Below are positions 4,902 to 41,588 of a DNA stretch of 50,822 bases, in pieces. Positions within the stretch are counted from its first letter, which is position 1. Each line of letters starts with the position of its first letter. A program made the translations under genes and the position numbers. The DNA is from Candidatus Aenigmatarchaeota archaeon (GTDB lineage Archaea; EX4484-52), in contig JAGLPV010000021.1 of the NCBI GenBank assembly GCA_023137195.1, positions 1 to 50,822 of the forward strand, given 5' to 3'. The notes under the pieces were generated by a model. The model saw nothing but the letters and a program-made list of their open reading frames with translations. It was not told the DNA's origin and made no database searches.

Positions 4902-4948
4902 ATATATTAATACCTCTCATTCTTTAATAATTTAACTTTATCTTTTAG

Positions 4949-4991: not shown

Positions 4992-4998
4992 TATTGAC

Positions 4999-24459: not shown

Positions 24460-24834
24460 TTACACCTTCACGCCCATATTTTCAAGTTTCAGATAAAAAC
24501 TATGCCCTAAATCTCCCTTGAACTCGCATGAAAAATATTCTCTATCTGAACCAAGCACTTCATCGACGCATGATAGTAATTCCTGTATTGCCTTGCCTAC
24601 TTTCTTCGGCTCTATTGAATTTATCTTAGAGTCTATAATTATAACCTCTGAATCACTTGAAAAACTGGTTGTATTTATAGTTACATACTCCAGAAAACTG
24701 TATTTGGATTTTAATTTTCCTATCAGGGAATCCATCACTATCAAAGAATAATGCGAAGAAGAATTTCTGGATACCATACCAATAAGTGTGCGTAACACTT
24801 TATCTGCAATTATCGAGTTTTTTGTTGCTATCAT
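24460..24834 (-). CDS. hypothetical helical protein in the signalling operon (possible output or adaptor domain)
   Basis: 124-aa ORF co-oriented between the REC and CBS-PAS genes; KLKSKYSFLEYVTI..INSIEPKKVGKAI..LENMGV. Confidence 0.65.
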   Translation of the reverse strand: MIATKNSIIADKVLRTLIGMVSRNSSSHYSLIVMDSLIGKLKSKYSFLEYVTINTTSFSSDSEVIIIDSKINSIEPKKVGKAIQELLSCVDEVLGSDREYFSCEFKGDLGHSFYLKLENMGVKV

Positions 24835-24847
24835 TTTAATTTCTTTG

Positions 24848-25219
24848 TTATTTAAACACTTTATCGATCCTCTTTTTCAGGTCAAATGTATCAAACGGCT
24901 TTTCAATATAGTCCTCTGAAACAACATTTCCTAATCCTCTGCTTACCTCATCTGTCTTTGCTGTCAGAAAAATGATAGGAATTTTTTTCCATTTTAGCTT
25001 AGACCTTATCTGCGCCGCCGTCTCCCATCCATCCATGTCCGGCATCATTATATCCAACAGGATAAGATCAGGTATTTGACCCTTTTTTAACAAAGATATG
25101 CATTTCTCCCCACTATCTGCTTCTATAAACTCATAGCCTGACGCCAAATCATCAAGACCTCTCTTCACACTATATATCAAATCCAAATTGTCATCAACTA
25201 TCATTAATTTCTTTTTCAT
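24848..25219 (-). CDS. single-domain response regulator (REC), copy 1
   Basis: IVDDN, LLDIMMP (phospho-Asp), FLTAK, YIEKPF. Confidence 0.93.
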   Translation of the reverse strand: MKKKLMIVDDNLDLIYSVKRGLDDLASGYEFIEADSGEKCISLLKKGQIPDLILLDIMMPDMDGWETAAQIRSKLKWKKIPIIFLTAKTDEVSRGLGNVVSEDYIEKPFDTFDLKKRIDKVFK

Positions 25220-25286
25220 AATATCGCCCTACATTAAATCAATCTTATGTATTTTAATGAACAATAAACTATATATATCTTGTCCT

Positions 25287-25352
25287 CGTAAATAAAGCAT
25301 TCATTTACGGCATAAAAATCCTGTTGCGAAAATTTAAATCCACAGGATTTTT
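25287..25352. repeat. two adjacent inverted repeats in the intergenic spacer
   Basis: cgtaaat-N9-atttacg (25287-25309) and aaaaatcctgt-N17-acaggattttt (25314-25352). Confidence 0.5.
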
Positions 25353-25457
25353 TCCTGTTGGTTAATCACATAAAACCAACCATATTGACAATCCACAGAC
25401 ATTCAATTTTATGTATTTTATCCTCTTTGCAACCGGAAATAAATCCTCTTTTTATTT

Positions 25458-26318
25458 TCAAAACCCTTCAAGAATCTCTTCAATCTGCCTCTTGTTAATC
25501 GGCTTTTTCATGTAGTCTTTCGCCCCAAGTTCAATACACTGTTTTTTCGTCTTCTCATCATACACAGAAGTCTCCATCACAACAACAACACCCGGGTTGT
25601 CTTTCTTAATCTTCCCTAATGCCTCTACTCCGTCCATCTTCGGCATTTTGATATCCAAAAGAACAAGCGCTGGCTTCTCTTCCTTCGCCTTTGCCACAGC
25701 CTCCACTCCATCGACCGCCTCAATCACATTATATTTACCTACATCAATATAACTCTTGAGAGTCCCTCTCATCATTGACGAGTCATCCACAATAAGAACC
25801 TTTTTTTTCTTCCCTATGCTTTTCTCCTGTTTTCCTGCTTCTGCAATAAATGCTACTTCCTTTGCCTCAAGCACTTTGCCAAGATCTACAAGTATTATCA
25901 ACCTCTCATCAAGTATCCCAACACCCTGTATGTAATCGGAATTAATCTTTTTGGTTATCGCAGATGGAGCCGGCTCAACCTTATCTCCTGTGATTCTCAG
26001 CACTTCATTACACTCATCAACCACCATGCCGACAGTATTGTCATGTATATCTGTAATCAGCACCCTTGTGTTCTTGTCTTTCTCCTTAACAGGCAGGTTT
26101 AGTTTTTTTGCAAGGTCTATCACAACGATGATTTTTCCTCTTAAGTTTATGACGCCGAGGATGTAGTCTTCTGTATTTGGAACTTTTGTGACATCCTCCA
26201 TCTTGATAATTTCTCTTACATCATTTATGTCCACGCCGAATTCTTCATTCTCTATTTTGAAGACCACCAACTGTCTCTCGAAGAATTGCTTTTCTGTGTC
26301 TTTTTGTTCATCTGCCAT
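25458..26318 (-). CDS. cheW: CheW-REC fusion (CheV-like architecture), copy 1
   Basis: CheW: QLVVFKIENEEFGVDINDVREII..VPNTEDYILGVINLRGKII..VGMVVDECNEV. REC: IVDDSSMMR, LLDIKMPKMDG, METS, KKP. Confidence 0.9.
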   Translation of the reverse strand: MADEQKDTEKQFFERQLVVFKIENEEFGVDINDVREIIKMEDVTKVPNTEDYILGVINLRGKIIVVIDLAKKLNLPVKEKDKNTRVLITDIHDNTVGMVVDECNEVLRITGDKVEPAPSAITKKINSDYIQGVGILDERLIILVDLGKVLEAKEVAFIAEAGKQEKSIGKKKKVLIVDDSSMMRGTLKSYIDVGKYNVIEAVDGVEAVAKAKEEKPALVLLDIKMPKMDGVEALGKIKKDNPGVVVVMETSVYDEKTKKQCIELGAKDYMKKPINKRQIEEILEGF

Positions 26319-26339
26319 ACGAAGCCTCCTTATATGAAA

Positions 26340-28652
26340 TTATTTCTTTACCTCCTCTTTGCCTTTCTTTTTATTTCCATCCGGCTTGTCTCCTTTTTTC
26401 ACAGATTCTTTCTTATGCTCTATTTTTTTATCCTCTCTTACTGTATCTTCTACAGAAGAATCATCCAACTTAAATTCTGAAACAATCTTCTTTAAGTCCT
26501 CTGCTCCCTGGGCAAGACTCTGTGCTGCTTCACTTACCTGTGTCATGGACGCTGTTGTCTCCTCCATAGATGCTGATACTTCCTCGGATGCTGCTGCACT
26601 CTCTTCTGCTATTGCACTGACCTCTGCTGCCGATTTTGAGACTTTTTCCACACCGGCCTGCGATTCCTGTGCCGCAGCACTTACTTCCTGCACCTGTCCG
26701 GCAATGCCTTTCACAAGCTCACTGATATTTTCAAGCGATTGTACTGCTTCATGGATTACCGCCGAACCCTTATCTACTGCCTTTTTCGTGCTGTCCATCC
26801 CGGAAACAGATGTTTTTGTCTCTTCCTGCACAGCTGTTATCAAATCTGCAATCTGTGTTGTTGCTTTCTGCGACTCTTCTGCAAGTTTTCTTACCTCATC
26901 TGCAACAACTGCAAATCCTCTTCCGGCTTCTCCTGCCCGTGCCGCTTCAATTGCAGCATTCAATGCAAGAAGATTTGTCTGCTCTGAAATGTTGTTTATG
27001 ACATCTATAATCTTGCCGATTTCCTGGCTCTTTGTATCCAAAGCCGCTATATTTCCTGATGTTTTCTCTGCTGTCTCCATTATCTGGGTCATCGACTCGC
27101 CTGCTCTTTTTCCTGCTCCAAGACCATCAACAGCAGTTTTCTGCGCATTAGAAGCATTTTCAGCGGTTTTCTGGGAATTGTCCGCAACCATTTTTGTAGC
27201 ATTACCGACTTCCTCGATAGATGATTTTGTTTCACCGCTAAGCCTTGAAAGATCCTGTCCTCCCTTTGCAACTTCCTGTATTGTGGATGACACCTGCTGG
27301 CTTGATGCATTTACCTGCTCCGATGAAGCAGAAAGCTCTTCAGCAGATGATGCCGCAATATTAGCATTCTTGGTTATATTAGATATAAGACTTCTCAGGT
27401 TGCCAAGCATAGTTTTCATTGCATTTGTAAGCACAAGAATATCTCCCTTAGCATCTATATTTATATCCTTTGTCAAATCCCCTTTCGCAATAGTCTTGGC
27501 AATTTCTGTCAATTTTTGCGCAGGTCCTGCAACATTATCAAGCATTGAATTCAATGAATTTCCAAGCATACCGATTTCATCTTTGCTATCTACAGTAGCC
27601 CGCCTATCTAATTCAACGGTCTCTTCCAGTCCTCTAAGTTCTCTTACAAGACGGTCAATTGGTTTAGTAATAAGTTTTGCAATAAACAATGCAATTAGAA
27701 CGCTCAAAATTACAGCAACAATTGTAAATCCTACAATCATTGTATTTGCAGAAGATTGTGCAGAAAGCATCTCATCTTTTTGATCCGCACGAATTTCATT
27801 TGCTATATTCTCAAATTCCCTTGCTGCTGCAACAACATTTTCTTCCTCTGCCAGTTGTTCATGATAGAGGGATATGTACTCTTCTCCGGCAGTCTCGTAT
27901 TCTCCCAATGCCTTTGTAATCGTATCAATCTGGTCTAAATTCACCTGCTGATTGAACTTTGCTCTTGTAGTCTTGCACTGGCTGTCTATATCCTCAACAA
28001 GACCTCTCCATTCTGCTGCATATTTTTCATCCTTCCTAAGCATGTAGTTCTTTTCAGCAACCCTTACCGATTCCGCGTATTTTATGAGTCTGTTCGCATC
28101 ATCTGCCTTTCCTATTCTATCTGTAAGCTCTGCTGTTGATTTTCCTGATGCTAAATCTGCATCCAACTGCTCCTTCTGAGATATCCTTAGGGCATCGCAT
28201 TCTGCTTCAACAATCCTCGCTTTCTCAACCATTATCATTTTTGCATCTTCCTGTTCATCGTATATGTCCTCAAATTCCGCAATAGAAGCTTCGTATTTGT
28301 CAAGTTCTTCTGAAAGAGCATCCATCTGCGCTATATTGTCAACGCTATTGAACTTGGCTTTTGTTTGGGCAATCTGGGTATGTGCTCCTTCAACAACAGC
28401 GTTTAGTTTCTGTATAGAATGTTCAGTATCGCTCCCCTGAAGGTCGTATCCTCTCAGCTGGAAGTTCTTTTCCTGCTGTCTTGCCTTCAATACATCTTTC
28501 ACAAGACGATTCGCATCATCTGCCTTATCTACTCTATCAACAACAGTAGACATACTACTATATCCGGTATATCCAATTATAGCAGCAATCAATACCACAA
28601 CAACAAACCCGCAAAGAATTTTCGAGCCGATTTTCATATCCTTGAATCTCAT
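26340..28652 (-). CDS. methyl-accepting chemotaxis protein 1 (HBM-like sensor, 2 HAMP)
   Basis: Two TMs; duplicated [12 protein letters not shown](F/Y)xLR sensor halves; two HAMPs; tip [43 protein letters not shown] at 28652 preferred over GTG at 28661. Confidence 0.96.
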
Positions 28653-28710
28653 ATTTTTCACACTATTTTATTTTTATTATCCTATATAAAAAATACTGCA
28701 TATATAAACA

Positions 28711-28729
28711 TACACTACAAAATAGTGTA
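28711..28729. promoter_or_regulatory. putative HxlR-family operator
   Basis: TACACTA-caaaa-TAGTGTA between divergent MCP1 and the HxlR gene; extra half-site acactatttt at 28660-28669. Confidence 0.55.
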
Positions 28730-28764
28730 GTTATATTATATATAATGCATTATATAACTCTACT

Positions 28765-29127
28765 ATGAGCAATCATTATTATGATGAACTAAAAAAAAGC
28801 ATGTTGCTGAAACTGCTTCAACTGCTTGGCAAAAAATGGTCTATGTCAATTTTAATTTCATTTATTGATGATGAAAAACAGCAATATTGCACAATAATGA
28901 AAAAATTCAAAAAAGCAATCAATCCTACTCTTTTGTCAGAGAGGCTAAAATCTTTTGAAAAACACAGCATCATAATGAAATGCGATGACGGCTGTTACCA
29001 GATTACAGAACTGGGCAAAAAAGTAATCACTTATCTCGATACTTTTAAAGAGGAAATGGAAAAAAATAATTTCACCTTCCCTGAAAAACTCAAATCAAAA
29101 AAGTATTTTGGTAATGTATATTATTGA
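28765..29127 (+). CDS. HxlR-family winged-helix transcriptional regulator
   Basis: LLGKKWSMSIL, INPTLLSERLKSFEKHSII, YQITELGK. Confidence 0.85.
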   Translation: MSNHYYDELKKSMLLKLLQLLGKKWSMSILISFIDDEKQQYCTIMKKFKKAINPTLLSERLKSFEKHSIIMKCDDGCYQITELGKKVITYLDTFKEEMEKNNFTFPEKLKSKKYFGNVYY

Positions 29128-29144
29128 AAAGAGCAATCGCTTAT

Positions 29145-30542
29145 CTAAAAATCATCCAGATCAAAGACGACAAACCCGCTCTTTCTTAATTCATCTTTAC
29201 CCTCTATTTTTCTGGCAATCAAACCAAAATGCTCTTTCCGACTCTCATCACGCCACTGGACATAATACGATTTCTGCTTCAACTTTTCAAGAATATCCAA
29301 TGCCTTATTCTTACCCAAATCCATCCATTTGCATTCAAAGAACCCAATCTCTTTTGCATCCTCATTCAACGCAACAAGGTCTAACTCCACCTCTTTCCGA
29401 CCATTATCCGACTTATAATGCCCCCACCAGTTGCCGATTTTTTCAAAATGAAATTTTAATTTATTCTTTCTATTCAAATCAATCAAAAATTCCTTTGATA
29501 TACCTTCAAACACATATCCAATATAAGAATCAAGATTGTCATAGATTAACTTTGCAATCTTGTCTTTATCCCCTCCTTCAATTTCAGACAGATTGGGATA
29601 AATAAAACGAAACCAGAACTTAAAATAATTATCTGAAATCACATAATGCGTATTTTTTGTTTTTACTTTTTTTTCTGTAACCTTTATTATCTTTTTTACA
29701 AATCTCAAATTAGACAGAACAGACAAATATTTAGGCAGTTTATTTACATCTATATTTGACTTGGATGCAAGTATACTCATTCTCAATGGTCTGTCCTTGA
29801 TTTGCTCTAAAAGAGTAAGATACGTCCCTGTATCCCTCAACTCCTGTTTCAACAAAAACAACGGCTCCTTGTACAATATCTTATCCTGTCTGAGGATATT
29901 TTCTTCTATATTTTTTCTGATTGATTTCTTATCATCAAATTCAAGCAGATACATCGGGATATTTCCCAGTATTGAATGTGCCTGTATTTTTTGCCCTAAA
30001 TTATATTTGGGGAAAAACTCAAAAACATTTTTCAAAAACATAGGCAATAACTCGATTTGTCCTGTCCTCCTGCCGTAAAGCGGACTCTTGTAATCCAGCA
30101 AATCCTCCATCATGCTAATAGAAGAGCCGCAAAGAATCAAAAAAATATTTGTATCTTTAAAATACTCATCCCACGCCATCTGGAATAAAGAAGCCATTGC
30201 CTTGTTTTTCCCCATCAAATAAGGAAATTCATCAATTACAAGAATCAATCTTTCCTTAGATTTTTGCGAAATATATTCAAATAAATCCTCCCAACTCTCA
30301 ACAAGAGGTGTCATTTCATCAAAACTCTCAGCAATTCTTTTTGCTATCTTTTTTATCTGGATCAGATCATTTTCCTGGCTGCACAAATAATATATGTATT
30401 TCTTGTTTTTGCAGAATTCTTTAATAAGAGCAGTTTTCCCAACTCTTCGCCTACCATAAACCAGTAAAAATTCAGGATTTCCTGAATCATGCCTTTGATT
30501 TAATGCTGTCAGTTCCTGTCTTCTGTTAATAAACAAACTCAT
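29145..30542 (-). CDS. archaeal ATPase (ATPase_2) - wHTH - DUF234/PD-(D/E)xK protein
   Basis: FINRRQEL, YGRRRVGKT, LVIDEFPYL, SPLYGRRT, DNYFKFWFRFIYPN, EVELDLVA..FFECKW. Confidence 0.92.
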   Translation of the reverse strand: MSLFINRRQELTALNQRHDSGNPEFLLVYGRRRVGKTALIKEFCKNKKYIYYLCSQENDLIQIKKIAKRIAESFDEMTPLVESWEDLFEYISQKSKERLILVIDEFPYLMGKNKAMASLFQMAWDEYFKDTNIFLILCGSSISMMEDLLDYKSPLYGRRTGQIELLPMFLKNVFEFFPKYNLGQKIQAHSILGNIPMYLLEFDDKKSIRKNIEENILRQDKILYKEPLFLLKQELRDTGTYLTLLEQIKDRPLRMSILASKSNIDVNKLPKYLSVLSNLRFVKKIIKVTEKKVKTKNTHYVISDNYFKFWFRFIYPNLSEIEGGDKDKIAKLIYDNLDSYIGYVFEGISKEFLIDLNRKNKLKFHFEKIGNWWGHYKSDNGRKEVELDLVALNEDAKEIGFFECKWMDLGKNKALDILEKLKQKSYYVQWRDESRKEHFGLIARKIEGKDELRKSGFVVFDLDDF

Positions 30543-30580
30543 AATAATAATTATTACAAGTATAATTTTAAATAGTTTTC

Positions 30581-30673
30581 TTAAAAATCATCCAAATCAA
30601 ACACAAAAAAACCAATCTTCCTCAATTCTTCTTTTCCTTCAATTTTTCTGCCAATCAACCCGAAATGCTCTGT
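30581..30673 (-). pseudogene. 3' remnant of a paralogous ATPase-DUF234 gene
   Basis: Translates TEHFGLIGRKIEGKEELRKIGFFVFDLDDF* versus EHFGLIARKIEGKDELRKSGFVVFDLDDF* in 29145..30542; in-frame stop upstream and no start codon. Confidence 0.85.
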
Positions 30674-30746
30674 CTAATTAATTTCCTGAATTATCATGTA
30701 TTAAGATTAAAACTACTTATATACTAAATTATATAAATATAATCTC

Positions 30747-31034
30747 TTGTATAATGATACCTATTCTACAAACAAACAAAATGGTGGTAATATTTCAAGA
30801 CACAAAACCCAATCAGAACAAAAACAAAAAGATATTGACGAACTTACAAATATTCTAAAAGAAGCAATAAAATCAGATGGCTGCTGTTTCTGCAATAATT
30901 CTCATCCCTGCCAGACACTGGAAACTGCAATCCTCTGCAAATACAAAAAAAGCTATGTGCACATAGAATGCTGCTCTTCAAAATGCAGTTGGCATGGTGA
31001 ACCATGCAAGCATGCAATCAACATCCATATGTAA
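30747..31034 (+). CDS. small Cys/His-rich putative zinc-finger protein
   Basis: CCFC..HPC..ILC..VHIECC..CSWHGEPCKH (9 Cys). Start uncertain (TTG 30747, or ATT 30792 after ggtggt). Confidence 0.6.
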   Translation: MYNDTYSTNKQNGGNISRHKTQSEQKQKDIDELTNILKEAIKSDGCCFCNNSHPCQTLETAILCKYKKSYVHIECCSSKCSWHGEPCKHAINIHM

Positions 31035-31048
31035 ACTCTAAATCACAG

Positions 31049-31209
31049 TTACTTGTTCTTAATATTCTTCAACACATCGCCAATCTGTCTCTTGTTAATC
31101 GGCTTTTTCAGGTAGTCTTTCGCCCCAAGTTCAATGCACTGCTTTTTTGTCTTCTCATCATACACAGAAGTCTCCATCACAACAACAACACCCTGGTTGT
31201 CTTTCTTAA
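31049..31209 (-). pseudogene. 3' remnant of a third CheW-REC gene
   Basis: 31081-31209 matches 25481-25609 at 123/129 nt (manual count). Encodes KKDNQGVVVVMETSVYDEKTKKQCIELGAKDYLKKPINKRQIGDVLKNIKNK*; stop upstream and no start codon. Confidence 0.9.
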
Positions 31210-31455
31210 GTTTGTATATTGATGTTTAATTACGAGGAAATTTTTGAGATATCCTTTAAAATAATCATAAATGTTTCCTTACAATCGACTCTACTATTAC
31301 ACTTCATTTCACCTCCGCTGGAGCAAAAGGTATTACAAAGAATCATAAAAAAAGGATTTTTATAACTCATTCCTACAAACGAAGTCATACTACATAACCT
31401 TATATTAAATGTTTGTATATATTCTTATTTACTATTATTGATAATATATTTTTAT

Positions 31456-31671
31456 ATGAGCAAATACATCCCCATGATAATGGACATTTTAGATGAAAAA
31501 GAAATCAAAAGCACAAACGAGATTTTAAAGAAACTCGAAGAAAGAAGCGGAAAAACAATCAATTGGCATTATATTTACCATATTTTAATGAAATTGAAAG
31601 AAAACGGAGAAATTGAACGATATAAAGCAAATGCCGGCTTTTTTTGGAGAAAAAGAAAAGCAAGAGAATAG
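31456..31671 (+). CDS. small winged-helix DNA-binding protein
   Basis: IMDILDEKEIKSTNEILKKLEE..INWHYIYHILMKLKENGEIERYK..FFW: wHTH pattern. ATG at 31456. Confidence 0.65.
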   Translation: MSKYIPMIMDILDEKEIKSTNEILKKLEERSGKTINWHYIYHILMKLKENGEIERYKANAGFFWRKRKARE

Positions 31672-31682
31672 AAAAATCTTTT

Positions 31683-32102
31683 TTAAGTAAACTTTCGACA
31701 ATCGCTGAGTCTATCCTTTCCACTCTTTTGATAGCCAACTATTTTATCTATCCTCTTTTTCAGGTCAAATATATCAAACGGCTTTTCAATATAATCTCTC
31801 GAAACAGCACTACCCAATTCTCTGCTTACATCATCTGTTCTTGCTGTCAAAAAAACAATAGGTATCTTTTTCCATTTAGGCTTTGATTGTATCTGCGCTG
31901 CGGTCTCCAAACCATCTATGCCCGGCATCATTATATCCAGCAAAATTAAATCCGGTATTTGTCTGTTTTTTAACAAAGATATGCATTCCTCCCCACTATC
32001 TGCCTCCATAAAAGAATAACTCGATGAGATATCATCAAGACCTCTCTTCACACAATGAATCATATCATAATTGTCATCTACAATCATTATTGTTTTTTTC
32101 AT
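31683..32102 (-). CDS. single-domain response regulator (REC), copy 2, with C-terminal extension
   Basis: Close paralogue of 24848..25219 (QIPDLILLDIMMP, KWKKIP, DYIEKPFD). Confidence 0.92.
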   Translation of the reverse strand: MKKTIMIVDDNYDMIHCVKRGLDDISSSYSFMEADSGEECISLLKNRQIPDLILLDIMMPGIDGLETAAQIQSKPKWKKIPIVFLTARTDDVSRELGSAVSRDYIEKPFDIFDLKKRIDKIVGYQKSGKDRLSDCRKFT

Positions 32103-32113
32103 AACTTTCCTTT

Positions 32114-32986
32114 TTAGATACTTTTCAAAATATCAACAATCTGCTTCTTGCTAATTGGTTTTTTCAGGTAATCCTTTGCCCCTGATTTAAGACACAACTC
32201 CTTTGTTTCATCCTCGTAAACTGATGTTTCCATCACAACAACAGTCTTTGGATTCACCTCTTTAATCTGTTTGAGTGCTCCAATTCCGTCCAGCTTTGGC
32301 ATCTTAATATCCAACAGGATAAGAGAAGGCTTTTCTTCCTTTACCTTCAATACAGCTTCCTCCCCATCTCCTGCCTCAATCACATCATATTTATCTGCAT
32401 CAATATAACTTTTCAATGTCCCTCTCATCATTGACGAGTCATCCACAATAAGCACTTTTTTCTTTTCCTCTTTTTTTTCTGGTTGCCCTGAATGTTGATC
32501 TTCCACCTGCTTTATATAATCCACATCCTTGTTTTCAAATACTTTCCCCAGATCAAGCAGAATCAGAATCCTATCCTCCAATATACCAACACCCTGCAGA
32601 TAATCTGAATCTATTTTTTTGGTAATTGTGGAAGGAGCCGGCTTTATTTTATCTCCGGTAATTCTCAATACCTCATTACACTCGTCAACAACCATCCCAA
32701 CGGTATTACCTTCAAATTCTGTTATTATTACTCTTGTATTTTTATCTCTTTCTTTAGCAGGCATACCTAATTTTTTTGCCAGATCAACCACAACGATTAT
32801 TTTGCCGCGCAGATTTATCACACCAATAATGTAGTCTTCGGTTCTGGGAATATGGGTAATATCCTCCATCTTAATGATTTCTCTCACATCATTAATGTCC
32901 ACCCCGAATTCCTCTTTCTCGATTCTGAAGATAACGAGCTGGCGCTCGAAAAACCGTTTTTCTGTATCTTTTTGCTCTTCTTCCAT
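32114..32986 (-). CDS. cheW: CheW-REC fusion (CheV-like architecture), copy 2
   Basis: Paralogue of 25458..26318: GVINLRGKII, IVDDSSMMRGTLK, LLDIKMPKLDG, METS, KKP. ATG at 32986. Confidence 0.9.
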   Translation of the reverse strand: MEEEQKDTEKRFFERQLVIFRIEKEEFGVDINDVREIIKMEDITHIPRTEDYIIGVINLRGKIIVVVDLAKKLGMPAKERDKNTRVIITEFEGNTVGMVVDECNEVLRITGDKIKPAPSTITKKIDSDYLQGVGILEDRILILLDLGKVFENKDVDYIKQVEDQHSGQPEKKEEKKKVLIVDDSSMMRGTLKSYIDADKYDVIEAGDGEEAVLKVKEEKPSLILLDIKMPKLDGIGALKQIKEVNPKTVVVMETSVYEDETKELCLKSGAKDYLKKPISKKQIVDILKSI

Positions 32987-32999
32987 TTTAATCACTGCT

Positions 33000-35087
33000 T
33001 TATTTTTTTACCTGTTTTTTCTGTTTTGGTTCTTCTTTTTTGACAGCAGGCGATTTTGCCTGCTGTTTTGTTTCCTGCTGCTGGATGAGGCTCTCATCAA
33101 TCTTAAACTGACTGATTAGCTTCTTCAGGTCTTCTGCGCCTTGTGCAAGTAGCTGGGCAGATTCTGCAACCTGTGTCATGGATGCTGTAGTCTCTTCCAC
33201 AGAAGCTGAAACCTCTTCCGAACCAGCGGCAGATTCTTCTGCAACCGCGCTTACTTCATTGATTGATTTATCTACTTTTTCTGCATTTGCAAGCTGTTCT
33301 TGTGTGGATGCACTAATCTCCTGTATCTGGTCTGCAACACCGGAAACTTTACTGCTTATAAGTTCCAGCGACTTCAATGCCTCATTTACTGTCTGGCTTC
33401 CTTCCTCAACTTCCTTTGTTCCTACCTGCATGGAGTCAACTGCCTTGTTAGTGCTTTCGGTAATGTCACTTATCATTGTCTCAATTTGCTTTGTTGCTTT
33501 TTGCGACTCCTCGGCAAGCTTTCTTACCTCATCTGCAACAACTGCAAATCCTCGTCCTGCTTCTCCTGCCCGTGCTGCCTCAATTGCAGCATTTAATGCC
33601 AGAAGATTTGTCTGCTCTGAAATAGAGTTAATCGCCTCAACGATTTTTGTTATCTCCTTGCTTTTTTCTCCAAGCTCACCAACAACCTTTGCAGAAGTAC
33701 CAACAGCACTACTAATATCACCCATTTTCTCTCCTGCTTTTTTTGCTGCCGCAGCACCACTCAATGAAGCCTCGTTTGCCTCAGTAGCGTTTTTGGCAGA
33801 ATCCTGTGCAGATTCTGCAACTGCCTTTATTGAAGCAATCAATTGCTGGGCTCCTTCTTTTGTTTCACCTGCATTCTTGCTCAAGTTCTGTCCTCCTTTA
33901 GCAATCTCCTGTATTGTTGAACTCACCTGCTCTGTTGATGCATTAACCTCCTGCGCACTTGCCGAGAGTTCTTCTGCAGTTGATGCTGCCATCTGTGAAT
34001 TCTGCATGACTTTTGCTACCATATTAGAAAGATTATCAGCCATCATATTTAATGCATTTGCCAGAGTTCCTATTTCATCCTTACTCTGGTAATTTATCCT
34101 TTTGCTTAAATCACCATTAGCCATTGTCTTTGCAAAATCCACGCCTTTCAACAATGGTCTTGTAATTATTCTGGCCAGGAACAGGGCTATAACCACACCA
34201 AGTATCACAGCAATAATTATCGAAGCAATGATTATCATATTTGCCGTTGAACTCAACTCCTGTGCCTCGTTCTTTGCAACTTCCAACTGAGCATAACCTG
34301 CATTTTCTGCTGCCTGTGCCTGCTCTATAACAGTTAGCCCCATGGTGTTCATATCAACCAAAATAATTTGCAGTTTTTTGACATTTTCAATCCAGTCCAC
34401 GCATAGTTTTTTATATTCTTGTACCTGTATTTTTGCCTGCGCTATTATTTGCCTGTCGGCAGGAGTAGCTACAGTCATTTCCTGTTCATTAAGAAGTACC
34501 GCCAAAGAAGCAAAATCAATCATTAATTTCTCTTCAGATGCCTTATCCTTCCTTAACATGTAATTTTTTTCCTGTACTCTACATTCTTTCACAAGAGCAT
34601 ATGCTTCTTGATTGTTTTTTAATAAATTCTCGATTACTCTTGCATTCTCAACAATTGTTGTTTCAGTTTCCCTGTTTTGGACAAGTAGTGCAACTGCTTC
34701 ATGGTATTTTGCCTCATACGCTTCTGTTTCTTCTCTTGCCTCCCGGGAGAGTTTAAGCAGTTCATCATTATCATACTCTGCCGCCAACTCGTCAACTTCA
34801 TCCAAAAAACCATATAGTTCTGCAACATTTTGCTTTGCACGCTCATAAATTTCATCCTCTTCTTCAAGCAGATAATTCTTCTCTTCCAGAATAGTGGACA
34901 GAGCCATTCTCTCAACGCCTGTCGCATACTCGACGGCTTTTGCATTATTGTCTGTTATGCCAAACAAGGCACCAGATATATTTCCGATATAGCTATAAGC
35001 CAATATCCCTAAAATTACTGTAATTGCAACAAGGGATAAAGAACCACCTAATATCTTATTTCTTACACTCATATCATTTAGATTCAT
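33000..35087 (-). CDS. methyl-accepting chemotaxis protein 2 (helical sensor, 1 HAMP)
   Basis: Two TMs; EEKNYLL / QEKNYMLR sensor repeats; HAMP ([25 protein letters not shown]); conserved hairpin tip. Confidence 0.96.
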
Positions 35088-35374
35088 ATTTTCTCACATT
35101 TTATTCATTTAATCATATATATTTTTGTATATTCAAATATTTATATATTAAATATTATATATAAACCTTTATATATTTTACGGTAACTATTATCATGTAA
35201 TTTTATCATAACAAAATCCTTCGACTTCACAAAATTTCCTAAAAATCAGGGTAAACTTTTCATCTCTATCTTTAAACAATCAAAAACCGCCCTCTTAAAT
35301 ATCTATAAAAATAAAAAGACAATGCATAAATATATATAAAACCTTATATATTTTAAGTAATATAAATAAACCTT

Positions 35375-36205
35375 ATGGAAACCGATGAAGAAAAAAAATG
35401 GCAGAATCTAAAAAAAACAATCACCAAAGAACTTAATTTTGACACAGAAAATTATACCAATAATTTCATAAAAAGAAGAGTCGCCTGCCGGATGAGAGCA
35501 ATTAAAATAGATGATTATTTCGCCTATTCACTCGCTCTTCAAAAAGACAAAGAAGAACAAAAAAAACTCCTGAAGGAACTTACAATCCATGTCACAAATT
35601 TTTTCAGGGACAGGGAAATGTGGAACACTCTGGAAACAAAAATTTTAATCCCTCTAATTGATGCAAAAATTGATGCAAACGACAAAAACCTCTCTTTCTG
35701 GTGCGCCGGTGCATCTTACGGGGATGAACCCTATTCTCTTGCAATCCTCCTGTCAGAAATATTAAGCAAGAAAAACAAACTGTCTAACTTTCACATCAGG
35801 ATAACAGCAGAGGATATTGAATCAAAAGTAATTGAAAAAGCAAAAAAAGGAGAGTTTGTAGATACGCACTTTTCTGAGATGGATGTGTCTCTGCTTGAAA
35901 AATATTTTGACAATATCAATAGTTCTTTTGTTATAAAAGAGGACATAAAAAAGCTTATCTACTTCAGGACAAGAGATATATTATCTCCCTTCGGAGCGCC
36001 AAAAAATATAGATGTCCTTTTTTGCAGGAACACTGTAATCTATTTTGAACGGGAAATAAAAGAAAACCTTTACACGAAATTTTCAGAAATACTCAAACCA
36101 AAAGGATATTTTGTAATGGGTAAAATGGAAACTCTTAGCGGACCTGCAAGAGATGATTTTAATTGCATTGACACCTCAAACAAATTTTTCCGGAAAAAAT
36201 CATAA
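35375..36205 (+). CDS. cheR: chemotaxis methyltransferase CheR
   Basis: LTIHVTNFFRD, WCAGASYGDEPYSLA, DVLFCRNTVIYF, GYFVMGKME. Confidence 0.96.
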   Translation: METDEEKKWQNLKKTITKELNFDTENYTNNFIKRRVACRMRAIKIDDYFAYSLALQKDKEEQKKLLKELTIHVTNFFRDREMWNTLETKILIPLIDAKIDANDKNLSFWCAGASYGDEPYSLAILLSEILSKKNKLSNFHIRITAEDIESKVIEKAKKGEFVDTHFSEMDVSLLEKYFDNINSSFVIKEDIKKLIYFRTRDILSPFGAPKNIDVLFCRNTVIYFEREIKENLYTKFSEILKPKGYFVMGKMETLSGPARDDFNCIDTSNKFFRKKS

Positions 36206-36327
36206 ATATCCTCGAGAAGACATTTACTCCATCTAATAATACTATTTGTATTGTTATCTAACCAGAGGGGGAACTCATGAGAAAAGAAGAATAACCACAA
36301 AAGTATCTTAAAATTCAACGGTTCCGT

Positions 36328-36455
36328 GTGTCATTCAACAAAGTTGAATGTGCAGAAAATCATGGAGAGTCATCGGTCTTTGACTGATGTGCGGAAAATC
36401 TTTGAGTCATCTGTCTCGAACAGATGTGCGGAAAATCTCTTTGATTTTCTTGCAT
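36328..36455. repeat. 3-unit hairpin array GTCAT-N13-ATGTGC(A/G)GAAAATC ending in a GAAAATC/GATTTTC palindrome
   Basis: Inserts tcaacaaagttga (36335-47), cggtctttgactg (36374-86) and ctgtctcgaacag (36411-23) are each self-complementary; periods 39 and 37 bp. Confidence 0.85.
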
Positions 36456-36476
36456 TCCTACATCTCATGGATATAA

Positions 36477-37508
36477 TCATCTTTTTCTTCTACAAATCAA
36501 ATCTACCCTCTTTATTATATTCCCAAGTGGCTCAACATAATCTGCCAGATTATTATCAACAATCGACTTAGGCATCCCATATATCATACTGGTCGCCTTA
36601 TCCTGCGCTATAACAACACCATTATTCTTTTTTATTGCTCTTGCCCCATCTGTACCGTCCTTTCCCATTCCGGTAAGCACAACTCCTATCACATTTTTAC
36701 CTGCAGCCGCAGCCGCAGACCGGAACATCATATTCACGCAAGGTCTCACATATTCTTCCTTTGGCTTTTGATTTAGGGATATATACAGATCAATCCCTTT
36801 TTTTATCTCAATATGATGATCTCCCGGGCAGACATAAACAGTCCCTTTTTTCAGTGCCTCTCCATGCCTGGCTTCCTTTACATTAACCTGGCAGATGGAC
36901 TTCAACCGATTAATAAAATGAATCATAAAATTCCCCGGCATGTGCTGTACAAGAACAACAGGCAGGTAATAATCCTCCGGAAGCGTAATCAAAATCCTCT
37001 CCACGCATGGGGGACCTCCTGTAGATGCACCAATCAGGAGAATCTTTTGTGTCTCCTGTGAATGTATTTTAGGCACAATTATCCTCTTCGTAAACTGATT
37101 CAAATTGCTCCCCGCTGCCGCCAAAACTTTTTCCCGTATCTCTTTTTCAAAAGCAATCTTGTTTTCCGGGATAATCAACCTCTGCGGCTTCTCGATAAAA
37201 TCAACCGCCCCAAGCTCAAGCGCCTTGATTGTTATATCCCCATCCTTCCTTGTATAGGAACTGATCATAACAACAGGAGTTTTCGTCGTATTCATTATCT
37301 GCTCTAAAGTAGAAAGACCGTCTAATTTTGGCATTTCAACATCAAGAGTGACAACATCGTATTTTTTTAACTTTAGTTTTTCCAGAGCCTCCAGACCATT
37401 CACTGCTCTATCGACACAAACATTATCAAAAGACAAAATCGTTCTTGAAATCAGATTCCTGATAAATAAAGAATCATCAACAACCAGAACATTAATTTTA
37501 TTTTTCAT
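36477..37508 (-). CDS. cheB: chemotaxis methylesterase CheB (REC + CheB)
   Basis: VVDDSLFIR, LDVEMP, GASTGGP, VQHMP, RPCVN, LTGMGKDG, YGMP. Confidence 0.97.
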   Translation of the reverse strand: MKNKINVLVVDDSLFIRNLISRTILSFDNVCVDRAVNGLEALEKLKLKKYDVVTLDVEMPKLDGLSTLEQIMNTTKTPVVMISSYTRKDGDITIKALELGAVDFIEKPQRLIIPENKIAFEKEIREKVLAAAGSNLNQFTKRIIVPKIHSQETQKILLIGASTGGPPCVERILITLPEDYYLPVVLVQHMPGNFMIHFINRLKSICQVNVKEARHGEALKKGTVYVCPGDHHIEIKKGIDLYISLNQKPKEEYVRPCVNMMFRSAAAAAGKNVIGVVLTGMGKDGTDGARAIKKNNGVVIAQDKATSMIYGMPKSIVDNNLADYVEPLGNIIKRVDLICRRKR

Positions 37509-37532
37509 ATAACTATTCAACTATGTAAACAT

Positions 37533-37889
37533 TTACAACTTAGACAACTCTTCCAGGATTTTTGCTTCCTGGAACGGTTTTACAATAAACCCCTTTGCCC
37601 CGTTTTTTATAGCATCGCTTACAATAGACTGCTGACCGGCAGAAGAGCACATCAAAACATTCGCATCAGGAAAATCCGCCTTTATCTTTTTCAGACAATC
37701 TATACCGCCAAGATTCGGCATGACAACATCCATAAACACAACATCCGGCTTATTTTGCTTATATTTTTCATAACCGTCATTGCCATCAACTCCCTCTGCA
37801 ACAACCGTATAATTATTCTTGATAAGAATTTTCTTGATTATCATTCTCATGAACGCAGAATCGTCAACAAGCATTACTGTTTTTGCCAT
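37533..37889 (-). CDS. cheY: chemotaxis response regulator CheY
   Basis: MAKTVMLVDDSAFMRMIIKKIL..FMDVVMP..MCSSAGQQS..FIVKPF: F1-type CheY. Confidence 0.93.
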   Translation of the reverse strand: MAKTVMLVDDSAFMRMIIKKILIKNNYTVVAEGVDGNDGYEKYKQNKPDVVFMDVVMPNLGGIDCLKKIKADFPDANVLMCSSAGQQSIVSDAIKNGAKGFIVKPFQEAKILEELSKL

Positions 37890-37922
37890 ATTCTATATTA
37901 TTAATTATACATATTTAAAAAC

Positions 37923-38282
37923 TTATCCGCAAAGCGTCTTCACAGCATTATTTATATCATCGCCCCTAAAGGGTTTAGTAATGTATATTTTTGCGCCCAG
38001 AGCCTTTGTTTCAGCTTTTGTCTTTTCATTCAACACAGAAGAGCACATCACAACTTTCGCAAGAGGATTTATTTTCTTGATTTCTCTTAGCGCACTAATC
38101 CCATCTGTCCCGGGCATAAGTATATCTAAAAATACCAGATTTGGTTTTTTTTCCTTGTACACATCTACTATTGCCGCACCATCTGCCGCTTCCCCAACCA
38201 CCTCACAACCGGCTTTTTTCAGGAAATTCTTTAATATTGTTCTCATAAGACCAGAGTCATCTGCCATAATTACTGTTGTCAT
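37923..38282 (-). CDS. cheY: second CheY-like response regulator
   Basis: ADDSGLMRTILK, FLDILMP, MCSSV, YITKPF. Confidence 0.82.
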   Translation of the reverse strand: MTTVIMADDSGLMRTILKNFLKKAGCEVVGEAADGAAIVDVYKEKKPNLVFLDILMPGTDGISALREIKKINPLAKVVMCSSVLNEKTKAETKALGAKIYITKPFRGDDINNAVKTLCG

Positions 38283-38391
38283 TTTTTCACCTATCTATTA
38301 ATCATACATCATATATTTTTATATTTATATATTTTATCATTACAAGTAAACTCATATATTTAAAATCATATAGTATCTACAACATTGCCTC

Positions 38392-40377
38392 TTACTCAAA
38401 CAAAGTCCCTACATCCACAATCAATATCACCCTCCCGCTCCCAAGGATTGTAGCTCCTGAAAATCCATTTGTTTGCTTTAAAATATTCTCAAGAGGCTTT
38501 ATGATTATATGCTGCTCACCTATAACTTCATCAATAATCAACCCGATTTCTTCTCCCTTCCTCTCGACAACAAGCACAAAATGCATATCCTTTTCTTCAT
38601 CACCTTGATTCTCTTCAATGCAAAGCAGTTTTTTCAGCCAAAATAAAGGCAAATCAGAGTTCCTGTAAATGATTGTATCCTCATTCTGGATTTTTTTTAT
38701 ATCACTTTTCTTTATTGTGATTATATTATTGACAACATCCATTGGCACTGCATATTCGCGAGTTCCCGCACGGAAAAAAAGACTTTGTATAATCGCAAGC
38801 GACAAAGGCAGCCGGAGAGTCACTGTTGTTCCAATATCTTTTTCTGAATTTATTGTGTATGTACCTCTCAAACTGCGTATTGTGGACTGGACAACATCCA
38901 TCCCAACACCCCTACCCGAAACATCTGTTATTACCTCTGTTGTACTAAACCCGGGTAAAAATATCAGATTAAATGCCTCCTTCTCAGTCATCATGCCTGC
39001 TTCTTTCTCTGTTATGAGCCCTTTCTTTATCGCTGTCATTTTCAGCACTTCGGGATTCATTCCATTACCATCATCACTAATCTCTATGACACATGTATTT
39101 TTTTCTTTTTTTGCAACAAGCTTCACAACTCCGGTCGGCTTTTTGTTGTTCTTCTTCCTCTCCTCAGGAATCTCAACCCCATGATCCACTGCATTCCTCA
39201 ATAAATGAACCAAAGGATCTCCAATCTTATCCAACACAGTCCTGTCAAGCGTAATCTCCTCTCCCTCGACAATAAAATTAACTTCCTTGCTCTGCTTCTT
39301 TGCCAAATCTCTTACCATCCGTGGAAATTTATCAAAAATATGCTTTACCGGAACCATCCTTGCTTCAATCACTTCATCCTGTAATTTTATTATCATCTTG
39401 TCTATGTCTGAAATAATTCTGTCAAGTTCTGAAATATGATATCTCTTGCTTAACTCATCAAGCCCTATCTTTGCTATGACAAGCTCCCCTGCCAAATTCA
39501 TCAAAGAATCCAGCTTTGTTATACTTACCCGTATATTCTGCACTGTCTGGACAACATTCTTCTTTGATTCTCCTCCTGCGGGCGCAGAATCTTTCGAAAT
39601 TTCCTGCTTTTCTGCCGCTTTTTTATCGCTGTATTTTTCAATACTCACCTTCTTTATTTCCGCAACACCCATTATTCTTTTTTTAATTTTCCCTTGCTCC
39701 TCTTCTGAGATAATCAACAAATTAAATTCCTTGCCAAAATTACCTTCCTCCAGTAACTTTAAATCAGGATGACTTCCAACCACCTCGCAAACATTCTCAA
39801 GAGCATTGAACACCAGCTGGACACGAACCCCCGGAAACATACAGTCTTCCGTAAGAACAATCTTTGCCCGTAACACCTTATCTTTTGCACCTGCAATTTT
39901 TTTTCTTGCATTATCATCCAGATTAAACTCCACATCTCCTCCCTTATTTCCTGCTCCCTGTTCACCATCCGAATCTTTTTTTTCAACCTCAGACGAAGTC
40001 AGCATTTGTTTAAGTCTCTCTATAATGGCGGCATTCCCGGATGTATCTCCCTCTGAACCTGATGAAGCAACATCATCTACCATTGCCTCTACCTCATCTA
40101 TGCACTCAAAAACCAAATCAATCAAATCGCTATTCACTTTGACCTTATTGTTCCTGACTTCATCAAATACATTTTCAAGCTTGTGCATCATCTCTTTGAT
40201 GCTCATAAAACCCATTGTCGCCGAATTACCTTTTAATGTATGGGCCGCCCTGAATATTACATCTATTGCCTCTTTATCCAACTGATTTTTCTCAAGCACC
40301 AAAATAGAATTATTAAGATTTTCAATCTGCTCTTTTGCATCTGCAATAAATTCTTCTATATACTCCTCATTTGCCAT
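38392..40377 (-). CDS. cheA: chemotaxis histidine kinase CheA
   Basis: HPt IFRAAHTLKG; P2 domain; IRVSITKLDSLMNLAGELVI; PLVHLLRNAVDHG; DDGNG; GFST..DVSGRGVGMDVV; P5 CheW domain. Confidence 0.98.
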   Translation of the reverse strand: MANEEYIEEFIADAKEQIENLNNSILVLEKNQLDKEAIDVIFRAAHTLKGNSATMGFMSIKEMMHKLENVFDEVRNNKVKVNSDLIDLVFECIDEVEAMVDDVASSGSEGDTSGNAAIIERLKQMLTSSEVEKKDSDGEQGAGNKGGDVEFNLDDNARKKIAGAKDKVLRAKIVLTEDCMFPGVRVQLVFNALENVCEVVGSHPDLKLLEEGNFGKEFNLLIISEEEQGKIKKRIMGVAEIKKVSIEKYSDKKAAEKQEISKDSAPAGGESKKNVVQTVQNIRVSITKLDSLMNLAGELVIAKIGLDELSKRYHISELDRIISDIDKMIIKLQDEVIEARMVPVKHIFDKFPRMVRDLAKKQSKEVNFIVEGEEITLDRTVLDKIGDPLVHLLRNAVDHGVEIPEERKKNNKKPTGVVKLVAKKEKNTCVIEISDDGNGMNPEVLKMTAIKKGLITEKEAGMMTEKEAFNLIFLPGFSTTEVITDVSGRGVGMDVVQSTIRSLRGTYTINSEKDIGTTVTLRLPLSLAIIQSLFFRAGTREYAVPMDVVNNIITIKKSDIKKIQNEDTIIYRNSDLPLFWLKKLLCIEENQGDEEKDMHFVLVVERKGEEIGLIIDEVIGEQHIIIKPLENILKQTNGFSGATILGSGRVILIVDVGTLFE

Positions 40378-40392
40378 ATTATTCTATAATAC

Positions 40393-41001
40393 TCAAGCCA
40401 TTTTTTTGTTCAACTCTTTTATTATGCGATTCATCGCCTTTGGCGTTGTCATAAGTATGAATTCTCCTTTAAAATTTTCCTTATCTATGTGCAGTTTTGT
40501 ATTAGTAAGCAAAGCTGTATGCGCAACCATTGCATGCTGTGCTGCAACTGTATTCAAAAGAGAGGCCGCCATATCATAGCAAGAAGACGGAACACTAGGC
40601 AATATCTTCATCTCAAGAAAATCAGCCAGGGAATTTAGGTATGCCGCGCAAATTATATTCCCTACCTCTTTCAAAGTAGAATCTCCCATCTCATCAACAT
40701 CTTTCTTCTCTTCTCCCAATAGCAAAGAAATAAGACGAAGAGCAGTATTTTTTTCAAACATCAAAAGCATTGTGCCGTCAATATCCCCATTAATCTCAAG
40801 AAGTACACCATATACCTGCTCTTCCGGGCGCTCAAGAGTCTCGGCAATTTTTTCTATCGCAACAAAACTCACATCAGGGACCTTTATATCTATCCTCTTA
40901 TTCACCATATCAGATAATGCTGTCGCAGCATTTCCTGCTCCAATATTTGCAATTTCTTTAATCGCATCATGTTCCAGTTCACTTAACATCTTCTTAATCA
41001 T
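40393..41001 (-). CDS. cheC: CheY-P phosphatase CheC
   Basis: DAIKEIANIGAGNAATALS and STLKEVGNII: both E-x-x-N sites intact. Confidence 0.94.
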   Translation of the reverse strand: MIKKMLSELEHDAIKEIANIGAGNAATALSDMVNKRIDIKVPDVSFVAIEKIAETLERPEEQVYGVLLEINGDIDGTMLLMFEKNTALRLISLLLGEEKKDVDEMGDSTLKEVGNIICAAYLNSLADFLEMKILPSVPSSCYDMAASLLNTVAAQHAMVAHTALLTNTKLHIDKENFKGEFILMTTPKAMNRIIKELNKKMA

Positions 41002-41588
41002 TACATCATCTCCTTTACCTTGTCTGTTATTTTCTGTAAAACCATATCAGCACCATCATTGCAGAAATATAAAAATATATGTCCTGTCTTGTCATCCTTC
41101 CCCTTCCAGCAGAATCTTGTATCTATTAAAAATACCTTTCCTTCCTTTGCAACCTCTTTCTCTCCTTCGGAAATGAACACATCCTTTAGAATGTCCACCC
41201 CTAATTTTGAATACTGCTTGCTGAATTCAAATGAATCTTCTATTGAAAGATAATCCTTGCATGAAACAGCATAGCTTGTGCTCATGGCAGTCAGTGATTT
41301 TTTGTCCTTTGATCTCATCTTTACGACAACCATATTATCTGTATCTCTTGGAAACATGACTAAAAGACCGCCTTTGCTTTCTTTCATCTTAAAGTCAAGA
41401 GAATACCTGTTTTTGTCAAGATAATCAAACAAACTACTAAATTTTTCTTCTGTAAAAATATAAGTCCTCGTTACATCAATCACTATTTCTGCACCCGTAT
41501 TCTGGGATATCGCCATTCCAATCCTTCCCGAACCAATATTCCCTATTTCTTTTGCCATTTCATTTTCCATCTCATCGAGCTGTTCCAT
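41001..41588 (-). CDS. divergent CheC-like protein
   Basis: N-terminal EMAKEIGNIGSGRIGMAIS; second site not recognisable; C-terminal DTRF..GHIFLY strand pattern as in CheC. Confidence 0.65.
   Translation of the reverse strand: MEQLDEMENEMAKEIGNIGSGRIGMAISQNTGAEIVIDVTRTYIFTEEKFSSLFDYLDKNRYSLDFKMKESKGGLLVMFPRDTDNMVVVKMRSKDKKSLTAMSTSYAVSCKDYLSIEDSFEFSKQYSKLGVDILKDVFISEGEKEVAKEGKVFLIDTRFCWKGKDDKTGHIFLYFCNDGADMVLQKITDKVKEMM

Follow-up and report, generated by a model that had tools for sequence, protein, structure and literature searches.

An F1-type chemosensory gene island in a DPANN archaeon with no recognised archaellar output route

Archaeal chemotaxis is understood only as a pathway in which phosphorylated CheY (CheY-P) acts through the adaptor CheF and ArlCDE on the archaellum, and chemosensory systems of the F1 class are linked to motility organelles. 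Here we describe a che gene island carried on a 50,822-nucleotide stretch of DNA from a DPANN archaeon (contig JAGLPV010000021.1 of assembly GCA_023137195.1), hereafter called the window. The window is one complete contig (C14) of a genome that we designate G000; other genomes (G) and contigs (C) are numbered in the same way. The G000 system has CheA, CheY, CheB, CheR, CheC paralogues, CheD and methyl-accepting chemotaxis proteins (MCPs) in common with the F1 systems of the euryarchaea Halobacterium, Haloferax and Methanococcus, and its CheY proteins resemble those of P. horikoshii and M. maripaludis. The euryarchaeal systems couple via CheF and ArlCDE, whereas profile searches of G000 found neither of these, nor archaellin, nor equivalogs of ArlH, ArlI and ArlJ; moreover, stand-alone CheW is replaced in G000 by CheV fusions, which to our knowledge are unusual in archaea. 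With the F1 systems of Bacillus subtilis and Thermotoga maritima, G000 shares the combination of CheC and CheD. Its CheY2 is nearest to T. maritima CheY, and the hairpin of one of its receptors, MCP2, is equal in length to that of T. maritima TM1143; CheV is present in B. subtilis. The output partner of these bacterial systems, FliM/FliY, has no counterpart in G000, flagellar genes not being expected in an archaeon.

Among DPANN, cheAWCDBY genes were reported in two families of Nanohaloarchaeota, for which host finding was proposed (PMC9765267). The main text of that paper mentions no archaellum, motility, CheF, CheV or pair of a receiver with the protein X described below; its supplement may differ. 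The Nanohaloarchaeota are a DPANN lineage sister to the phylum of G000, which is a different, non-halophilic one. In the part of its text available to us, a survey of 352 genomes states that DPANN have no chemotaxis system (PMC9680633), and among the studies of EX4484-52, the probable host phylum, those examined do not mention chemotaxis in their main texts; their supplements may hold tables of che or arl genes. A survey from 2026 connects F1 systems with archaella, notes Chloroflexota that have an archaellum and no CheF, and in its available text leaves DPANN unmentioned (PMC13747009). These Chloroflexota resemble G000 in having an F1 system without CheF, but archaellum loci are present in them and none was recognised in G000. 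In the cyanobacterial Tax/Pix systems, according to the available text, a Che-type kinase signals to receivers and a PatA-type (PATAN-REC) partner domain binds the pilus motor (10.1101/2021.06.11.447907). G000 is like them in pairing a receiver with a small non-receiver protein, X, in a genome with a pilus core, and differs in that the sequence of X does not identify it as a PATAN domain and in that nothing was found to connect X with a pilus gene.

Because the route from CheY-P through CheF and ArlCDE to the archaellum is missing from G000, the output of its chemosensory pathway is most likely non-archaellar, a reading to which we assign a probability of about one half. What is new is the documentation, for a second phylum of DPANN, of an F1 island that lacks the archaellar route, together with an undescribed candidate family of receiver partners. 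The finding prompts the question of which other processes pathways of this kind govern, with attachment and the search for hosts in DPANN cells as examples. The genes of the island, called from a listing of open reading frames (ORFs) and Pfam scans, are as follows, with window coordinates and strand; REC denotes a receiver domain.

20187..22211, minus: sensor histidine kinase (dCache, HAMP, HisKA, HATPase_c; Pfam), last gene of the sensory island
22201..24438, minus: protein with four CBS domains and PAS repeats, without a kinase domain (Pfam)
24460..24834, minus: X, 124 residues, helical, candidate receiver-binding output protein (no Pfam match)
24848..25219, minus: REC1, stand-alone receiver of generic type (Pfam REC)
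25458..26318, minus: CheV1, CheW-REC fusion (Pfam CheW 133 bits, REC 94.5 bits)
26340..28661, minus: MCP1, transmembrane chemoreceptor (HBM sensor, HAMP, MCPsignal; Pfam)
28765..29127, plus: HxlR-like regulator, in an insert between the two MCP-CheV-REC modules (Pfam)
29145..30542, minus: ATPase_2/DUF234 protein, in the same inter-module insert (28765..30542; Pfam)
30747..31034, plus: small Cys/His-rich protein (no Pfam match)
31683..32102, minus: REC2, paralogue of REC1 (Pfam REC)
32114..32995, minus: CheV2, CheW-REC fusion (Pfam)
33000..35087, minus: MCP2, chemoreceptor (Pfam)
35375..36205, plus: CheR methyltransferase (Pfam CheR 161.7 bits, and CheR_N)
36477..37520, minus: CheB methylesterase, REC and esterase domain (Pfam 202.6 bits)
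37533..37889, minus: CheY2 (Pfam REC)
37923..38282, minus: CheY1 (Pfam REC)
38392..40377, minus: CheA, domains P1 to P5 (Hpt, P2, H-kinase_dim, HATPase_c, CheW; Pfam)
40393..41001, minus: CheC phosphatase with two ExxN sites (Pfam CheC, two stretches, and CheX)
41001..41588, minus: divergent CheC paralogue, 195 residues (no Pfam match; BLASTP and orthologue profile)
41702..42577: M48 (htpX-like) gene, bounding the island on one side

An initial annotation, made from the letters of the window, had listed a cheC-like gene, cheC, cheA, two cheY, cheB, cheR, two MCP genes, two CheW-REC fusions and two further receivers. The Pfam scans bear out these genes and their coordinates, and the cheC-like gene (41001-41588) was identified by BLASTP and profile comparison. 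The same annotation bounded the cluster by htpX and a surface-protein gene; the M48 gene does lie on one side, but on the other the surface protein is not the immediate neighbour, the kinase (20187-22211) and the CBS-PAS protein (22201-24438) coming in between. Both of these belong to the sensory island, which reaches 20187. The island contains two paralogous modules, each in the order MCP, CheW-REC fusion, REC (33000-35087, 32114-32995 and 31683-32102; 26340-28661, 25458-26318 and 24848-25219). REC2 is 76% identical to REC1 over their alignment, and no X gene follows it. HxlR- and PadR-like regulators also lie within the island. According to local phmmer searches in six frames, all che genes of G000 are in the island except that for CheD, and nearly all receiver domains of the genome are located there.

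The recognised enzymes had been said to retain their catalytic residues. We scored catalytic and phospho-acceptor motifs by eye on the translations and found them present: the HTLKG, N, G1, F and G2 boxes of CheA, GASTGG, the His and GMGKDG in CheB, both ExxN sites of CheC, the motifs of CheR, the Asp, Thr/Ser and Lys positions of the receivers, and the Cys and His of CheD. The best solved relatives of CheY2 and CheY1 are T. maritima CheY (1tmy, 126.7 bits) and P. horikoshii CheY (6er7, 97.8 bits) respectively, and judged by these matches both receivers adjoining CheA are orthologues of CheY. Those of REC1 and REC2 are 3cg4 and RR468 (3dge), and on the same grounds REC1 and REC2 are generic stand-alone receivers, not CheY orthologues. 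Residues 365-662 of MCP2 align without a gap with residues 12-309 of TM1143 (2ch7), that is, over 298 residues and an equal hairpin length; we take TM1143 to belong to the 44H (44-heptad) receptor class. Both 25458-26318 and 32114-32995 encode a CheW domain with a C-terminal receiver, the architecture of CheV by Pfam, and these two fusions were the only coupling proteins found, with no stand-alone CheW. Features of the F1 type are present in CheA, with domains P1-P5 including P2, and in the occurrence of CheC in the island and CheD on another contig. By gene content the island most likely represents an intact and complete F1-type chemosensory pathway, which we infer to be active.

The profile searches agree with the earlier observation that the window contains no cheF, cheD or archaellum gene. 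Beyond it, the outcome was divided: CheD was found at C42:490-972 (89.6 bits, named CheD by NCBIfam), beside ScpB and Nudix genes on a 3.1-kb contig, but CheF, ArlCDE, ArlH, ArlI, ArlJ and archaellin above threshold were not found. CheF (PF04283) gave no match in G000, in G002 or G004, which are the remaining che-bearing members of the phylum, or in any of the 42 phylum genomes, of which 10 are at least 90% complete; the same search matched 3 of 14 control genomes (M. jannaschii, H. volcanii and M. acetivorans). There was likewise no ArlCDE (PF04659) in G000 or any of the 42, ArlX itself not having been searched for in G000. For archaellin (PF01917) the best match in G000 was a 168-residue pilin-like protein (C2:21550-21828), scoring 20.4 bits against a cut-off of 29.5; G002 reached 24.1 bits, also below threshold, and G004 gave none. 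At E<=1e-5 no archaellin was detected in G000 or in the 19 genomes of families f1 and f2. The NCBIfam equivalog models for ArlI, ArlH and ArlJ were calibrated on G066. This genome has a real archaellum, its che and arl genes form one operon, and no CheA outside the phylum is closer to that of G000 than its own (48% identity). The best G000 scores were 409.7 bits for ArlI (cut-off 550; G066, 746 and 717), at most 38 for ArlH (cut-off 215; G066, 254) and 96.8 for ArlJ (cut-off 550; G066, 494, itself just short). By these profile tests G000 appears to have no archaellum.

Paired paralogues without a Pfam match lie right after CheD in G066 (C2:22184-23967, 283 and 311 residues) and in G380 (C52:10473-12750, 353 and 400 residues), the G066 pair preceding ArlCDE. 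Neither genome has a Pfam CheF match, and the pairs may constitute a divergent family of CheF-like adaptors. Because they stand at the CheF position, a negative Pfam result for CheF does not prove that other archaea lack an adaptor. A profile of the four proteins had no match in the six-frame translation of G000 (best E 0.069) or in the che loci retrieved from G002 and G004, and G000 seems to be without this alternative family too.

To place G000 among archaea we used a sample of 401 genomes, with CheA called at E<=1e-20 and archaellin at E<=1e-5. A CheA relative was present in 49, CheF in 30 and archaellin in 85. CheF accompanied CheA in 26 of the 49 genomes; 12 of the remaining 23 had archaellin. 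The G000 case is therefore not unique, as 11 of the 49 CheA-positive genomes have neither CheF nor archaellin (G000, G002, G004, G058, G073, G142, G190, G266, G314, G319 and G376). Several of these are 91-98% complete (G058, G190, G266, G142, G073, G319 and G376), and the genomes of G319 and G376 measure only 0.8-0.9 Mb. Outside the phylum the nearest CheAs are archaeal, with 41-48% identity, and the genomes carrying those closest to that of G000 (G066, G236, G369, G096, G228, G380 and G247) are all negative for Pfam CheF and positive for archaellin.

Of the 42 phylum genomes, three have a CheW domain: G000 and, from another family, G002 and G004. None of the three same-genus genomes, which are only 57-75% complete, has one. 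As had been supposed, che genes are not routine in this lineage. In a maximum-likelihood tree, built by a quick search from archaeal CheAs only (30 sequences), the CheAs of G000, G002 and G004 formed one clade (support of 99 in the Shimodaira-Hasegawa-like approximate likelihood ratio test), with G000 on a long branch. The gene order is CheC'-CheC-CheA-CheY-CheY-CheB in G000 as against CheY-CheY-CheB-CheA-CheC'-CheC in G002 and G004. Just upstream of the CheY-CheY-CheB-CheA operon, G004 (C166:33726-35569) and G002 (C182:8074-9204) encode large proteins with repeated winged-helix-like N-terminal motifs, of which G000 has no counterpart. At G002:C182:950-3899 four short ORFs lie beside a CheV gene, three of them CheR-like (206, 315 and 216 residues).

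Three small proteins of the island had been put forward as candidates for an unrecognised adaptor, and only X (24460-24834) gained support, with a generic receiver, not CheY, as its predicted partner. The product of 41001-41588 is 26% identical to the neighbouring CheC (BLASTP, E 6e-9), and a profile of this protein and its orthologues (three sequences), which come after CheA in G002 and G004, matches T. maritima CheC (1xkr, E 4.3e-9). Its first ExxN site (KEIGN) is invariant in all three orthologues and the second aligns to non-matching residues; it was rejected as an adaptor and is regarded as a one-site CheC paralogue. The C-terminal Cys/His-rich domain of 30747-31034, a family that may bind metal, is found in small ORFs of about 70 residues in 18 of the 42 phylum genomes, mostly without che. 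Its only che-adjacent copy is in G002:C114 (59% identity, next to CheV), and a word-based search with it found no match beyond the query itself. As its family resides mostly in che-less genomes, it was rejected as a che-specific adaptor.

X proved to belong to a family. A first search gave a single match and suggested an orphan; a full HMMER scan of 1.84 billion representatives overturned this, with 205 relatives at E<=1e-3 and 98 at E<=1e-10. The domain, of about 120 residues, occurs singly or as double or triple repeats. It corresponds to no Pfam family (none of 36 aligned members had a relevant match), and its identification as a PATAN domain was not supported, PF14332 matching none of the 36. 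The AlphaFold2 model of X is mainly helical (predicted local distance difference test score (pLDDT) 91.2, predicted template modelling score 0.84). Foldseek found no match in the PDB at E<=0.001; a weak structural lead was a DUF4388 cluster, 11% of whose members carry PatA_N (template modelling score 0.73, the aligned part not being the named family). None of the 20 longer family members scanned has a receiver fused to the X domain, and two scans of metagenome contigs found no relatives of X. Some fusions of the family give weak winged-helix-like matches below the Pfam cut-offs.

The X profile matches 2 of the 42 phylum genomes (G000 and G004) and 3 of the 401 archaea (these and G380), all CheA-positive; these genomes include kin that are not independent, and the co-occurrence is a lead, not a statistic. 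In all four occurrences (the window, G004:C49, G380:C6 and G380:C25) X lies directly downstream of a REC1-type receiver, and the REC1 orthologues upstream of X in G004 and G380 are 57-68% identical to REC1. At G004:C49 the pair is accompanied by orthologues of the dCache kinase (3179-5296, 59% identity, adjoining the pair) and of the CBS-PAS protein (589-3189, 43%, in the same module), and at G380:C6 by a kinase. Upstream of the receiver at G380:C25 lies a gene whose product carries a C-terminal CheW domain, with an MCP gene nearby, an arrangement parallel to MCP-CheV-REC1-X in the window.

A predicted complex of REC1 with X scored 0.48 (runs 0.48, 0.45 and 0.60), the best control scoring 0.00; the runs agreed in at least 98% of contacts, with a partner pLDDT of at least 86. 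Of 80 solved complexes 58 attained the mark applied, as did 2 of 110 mismatched pairs; only 7 of the solved complexes, and both passing mismatches, did so at a score of 0.60 or under. The prediction was graded as weak support for X as a putative partner of REC1, a generic receiver and not a CheY. It is doubtful that X founds a new family of receiver-binding output proteins which, with REC1-type receivers downstream of CheW or CheV, forms an unrecognised output branch of archaeal arrays. Were it so, F1 pathways in DPANN cells that lack an archaellum could use the branch to direct attachment or the behaviour of pili toward hosts. REC1 and X offer a concrete pair of proteins that can be tested as a new output candidate.

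In the working that we propose, ligand binding at the MCPs would modulate CheA through CheV, and CheA would phosphorylate the receivers of CheY1, CheY2, CheB and CheV, with CheR, CheB, CheD and CheC providing adaptation and signal termination. One candidate output would be control of type IV filaments, in adhesion or host contact; another would be a branch of protein-protein interactions via REC1-type receivers and X, which CheA, the adjacent kinase or both might feed.

Several points weigh against a non-archaellar output. The three che-bearing genomes are only 81-87% complete (G000 84.8%, the others 81% and 87%) and CheD itself sits on a separate 3.1-kb contig; the assemblies being incomplete and fragmented, an arl or cheF locus may therefore have gone unbinned. 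The nearest CheAs outside the phylum belong to archaellum-bearing genomes. One study reports that type IV filament genes of DPANN are scattered and that an archaellum is present in 167 DPANN genomes (PMC13705601). The three main types of type IV filament ATPase are found in nearly all 42 phylum genomes, with or without che, and therefore give no specific tie between che and pili. As for X, the score of its complex with REC1 was a weak pass only, X also occurs in G380, an archaellin-bearing genome, and REC1 looks like the partner of a HisKA kinase; X may belong to the two-component module and not to the Che pathway. The earlier proposal of a non-archaellar output or an unrecognised coupling remains the better reading; it is drawn from genomes 81-87% complete.

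Among the alternatives, an unlikely one that fares best holds that no filament is involved at all, and that CheA and the adjacent kinase feed REC1, REC2 and X in an alternative cellular function affecting gene expression, surface proteins or attachment. The concentration of nearly all receivers of the genome in the island and the retention of the REC-X pair next to sensor kinases favour it, as do the HxlR- and PadR-like regulators within the island and the winged-helix-like matches in some X-family members. The latter, however, fall below the Pfam cut-offs, and the core resembles the F1 class, which in the available text of the 2026 survey is linked to motility organelles (PMC13747009).

Filament genes bear on a second alternative. 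G000 has a generic type IV filament core of five T2SSE ATPases, seven single-domain T2SSF matches, a protein with a pilin N-terminal domain (TIGR02537, 29.4 bits against a cut-off of 20) and a prepilin peptidase (Peptidase_A24, 30.1 bits against 26.5). The genes are scattered, ATPase and platform gene being paired only at C35 and C31. The ATPases were rejected as che-linked on account of their near-universal occurrence in the phylum. There are three KaiC-like ATPases in G000. The NCBIfam model does not identify the one at C50:321-1025 as ArlH. Only two genomes encode a close orthologue of it: G021, which is 57% complete and in which che was not found (80% identity), and G004 (58%). The G004 gene (C166:25848-26540) lies 1.5 kb from the che cluster and G002 has none, so that the evidence for a link of this gene to che is mixed.

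It is rather unlikely that these genes amount to a scattered, divergent, archaellum-like rotary filament, made of the C39:10654-12588 ATPase, the KaiC-like ATPases, short platform proteins and an ArlF/pilin-like protein (C2:21355-21861), on which CheY-P acts without CheF. The C39 ATPase is indeed the best G000 match to the ArlI model (409.7 bits), three KaiC-like ATPases are available, and in several relatives an ATPase of the C45 type lies about 2 kb from a KaiC-like gene; scattered archaellum genes in DPANN (PMC13705601) and an archaellum without CheF in Chloroflexota (PMC13747009) are described in the available texts. Every archaellum-specific model was nevertheless missed by a wide margin, the ATPases are found throughout the phylum with or without che, and there is no ArlCDE, ArlX not having been included in the G000 searches. 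The C45-type ATPase is often found within about 2 kb of a KaiC-like gene in phylum genomes (for example G041:C5:6359-8670, G003:C56:530-4522 and G008:C6:7477-11463). This neighbourhood resembles an ArlH/ArlI pair; the arrangement was not seen in G000.

There is a small probability that the island is a normal archaeal F1 system and that an ordinary archaellum, with CheF and ArlCDE, is encoded in the roughly 15% of the genome missing from the assembly or the bin. This would fit a genome that is 84.8% complete in 57 contigs, with CheD split onto a 3.1-kb contig, and nearest outside CheAs that sit in archaellum operons, che and arl forming one operon in G066. Against this, all three che-bearing genomes of the phylum are without CheF and above-threshold archaellin; not one of the 42 genomes, including the 10 that are at least 90% complete, yielded CheF or ArlCDE, and families f1 and f2 gave no archaellin match at E<=1e-5.

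The receptor module may have a history of its own. The MCP-CheV segments of G000 (25458-28661 and 32114-35087) are 66-71% identical to their counterparts in G002:C114 and G004:C166, MCP1 sharing 67-68% identity with the receptors of G004 and G002. Because CheA (45-47%) and FtsY (43-52%) are much less alike in the same comparison, lateral movement of the MCP-CheV module within the phylum is suggested. That the whole island is foreign or non-functional, whether through mis-binning of the contig or as a cluster acquired recently and now in decay, is very improbable: the patchy distribution of che (3 of 42 genomes in the phylum, none of 3 in the genus) and the high identity of MCP-CheV relative to FtsY and CheA would agree with it, but the FtsY of the contig is 81% identical to that of a same-genus genome, the G+C content fits the genome, all genes are open with motifs intact, and the che core recurs in three further cold-seep runs (0.60-0.91 of words).

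The che contig belongs to the lineage of G000, because the FtsY encoded on it is 81% and 73% identical to those of same-genus genomes. A comparison of flanking synteny in these genomes with an asparaginase query matched paralogues of 34-36% identity only. The three additional DNA runs came from the same cold-seep study, the fractions given above being those of sampled che-core words; no RNA run appeared among those listed as containing the core. The genome comprises 1.42 Mb in 57 contigs, is 84.8% complete and 0.7% contaminated, and has a G+C content of about 35% throughout, that of the che contig being the same. Its EF-2 is 87% and 84% identical to those of metagenome-assembled genomes (MAGs) titled 'Candidatus Nanohalarchaeota archaeon', 67% to that of a MAG with the isolate name GLR112 and 66% to that of a MAG titled Aenigmatarchaeota. 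The isolate name matches that of a genus in phylum EX4484-52 in the available text of PMC13503563. The GTDB phylum of G000 holds 42 species in a single order, and its fit to the published descriptions of EX4484-52/Caliditerrarchaeota (10.1101/2025.08.05.668663 and PMC13503563, as far as their available texts go) makes this probably the host phylum. EF-2, FtsY and the survey of che in the phylum uphold the earlier placement of the host as DPANN-like; on these markers it is a DPANN archaeon of a non-halophilic phylum, and the cells are probably tiny, reduced and symbiotic or host-dependent.

This 1.4-Mb genome also contains giant ORFs. That in the window (11441-19906), a surface protein of 2821 residues, has one NPCBM_assoc domain as its sole Pfam match; two larger ones, of 5,673 and 10,910 residues, are found at C1:111116-128137 and C54:19771-52503 respectively.

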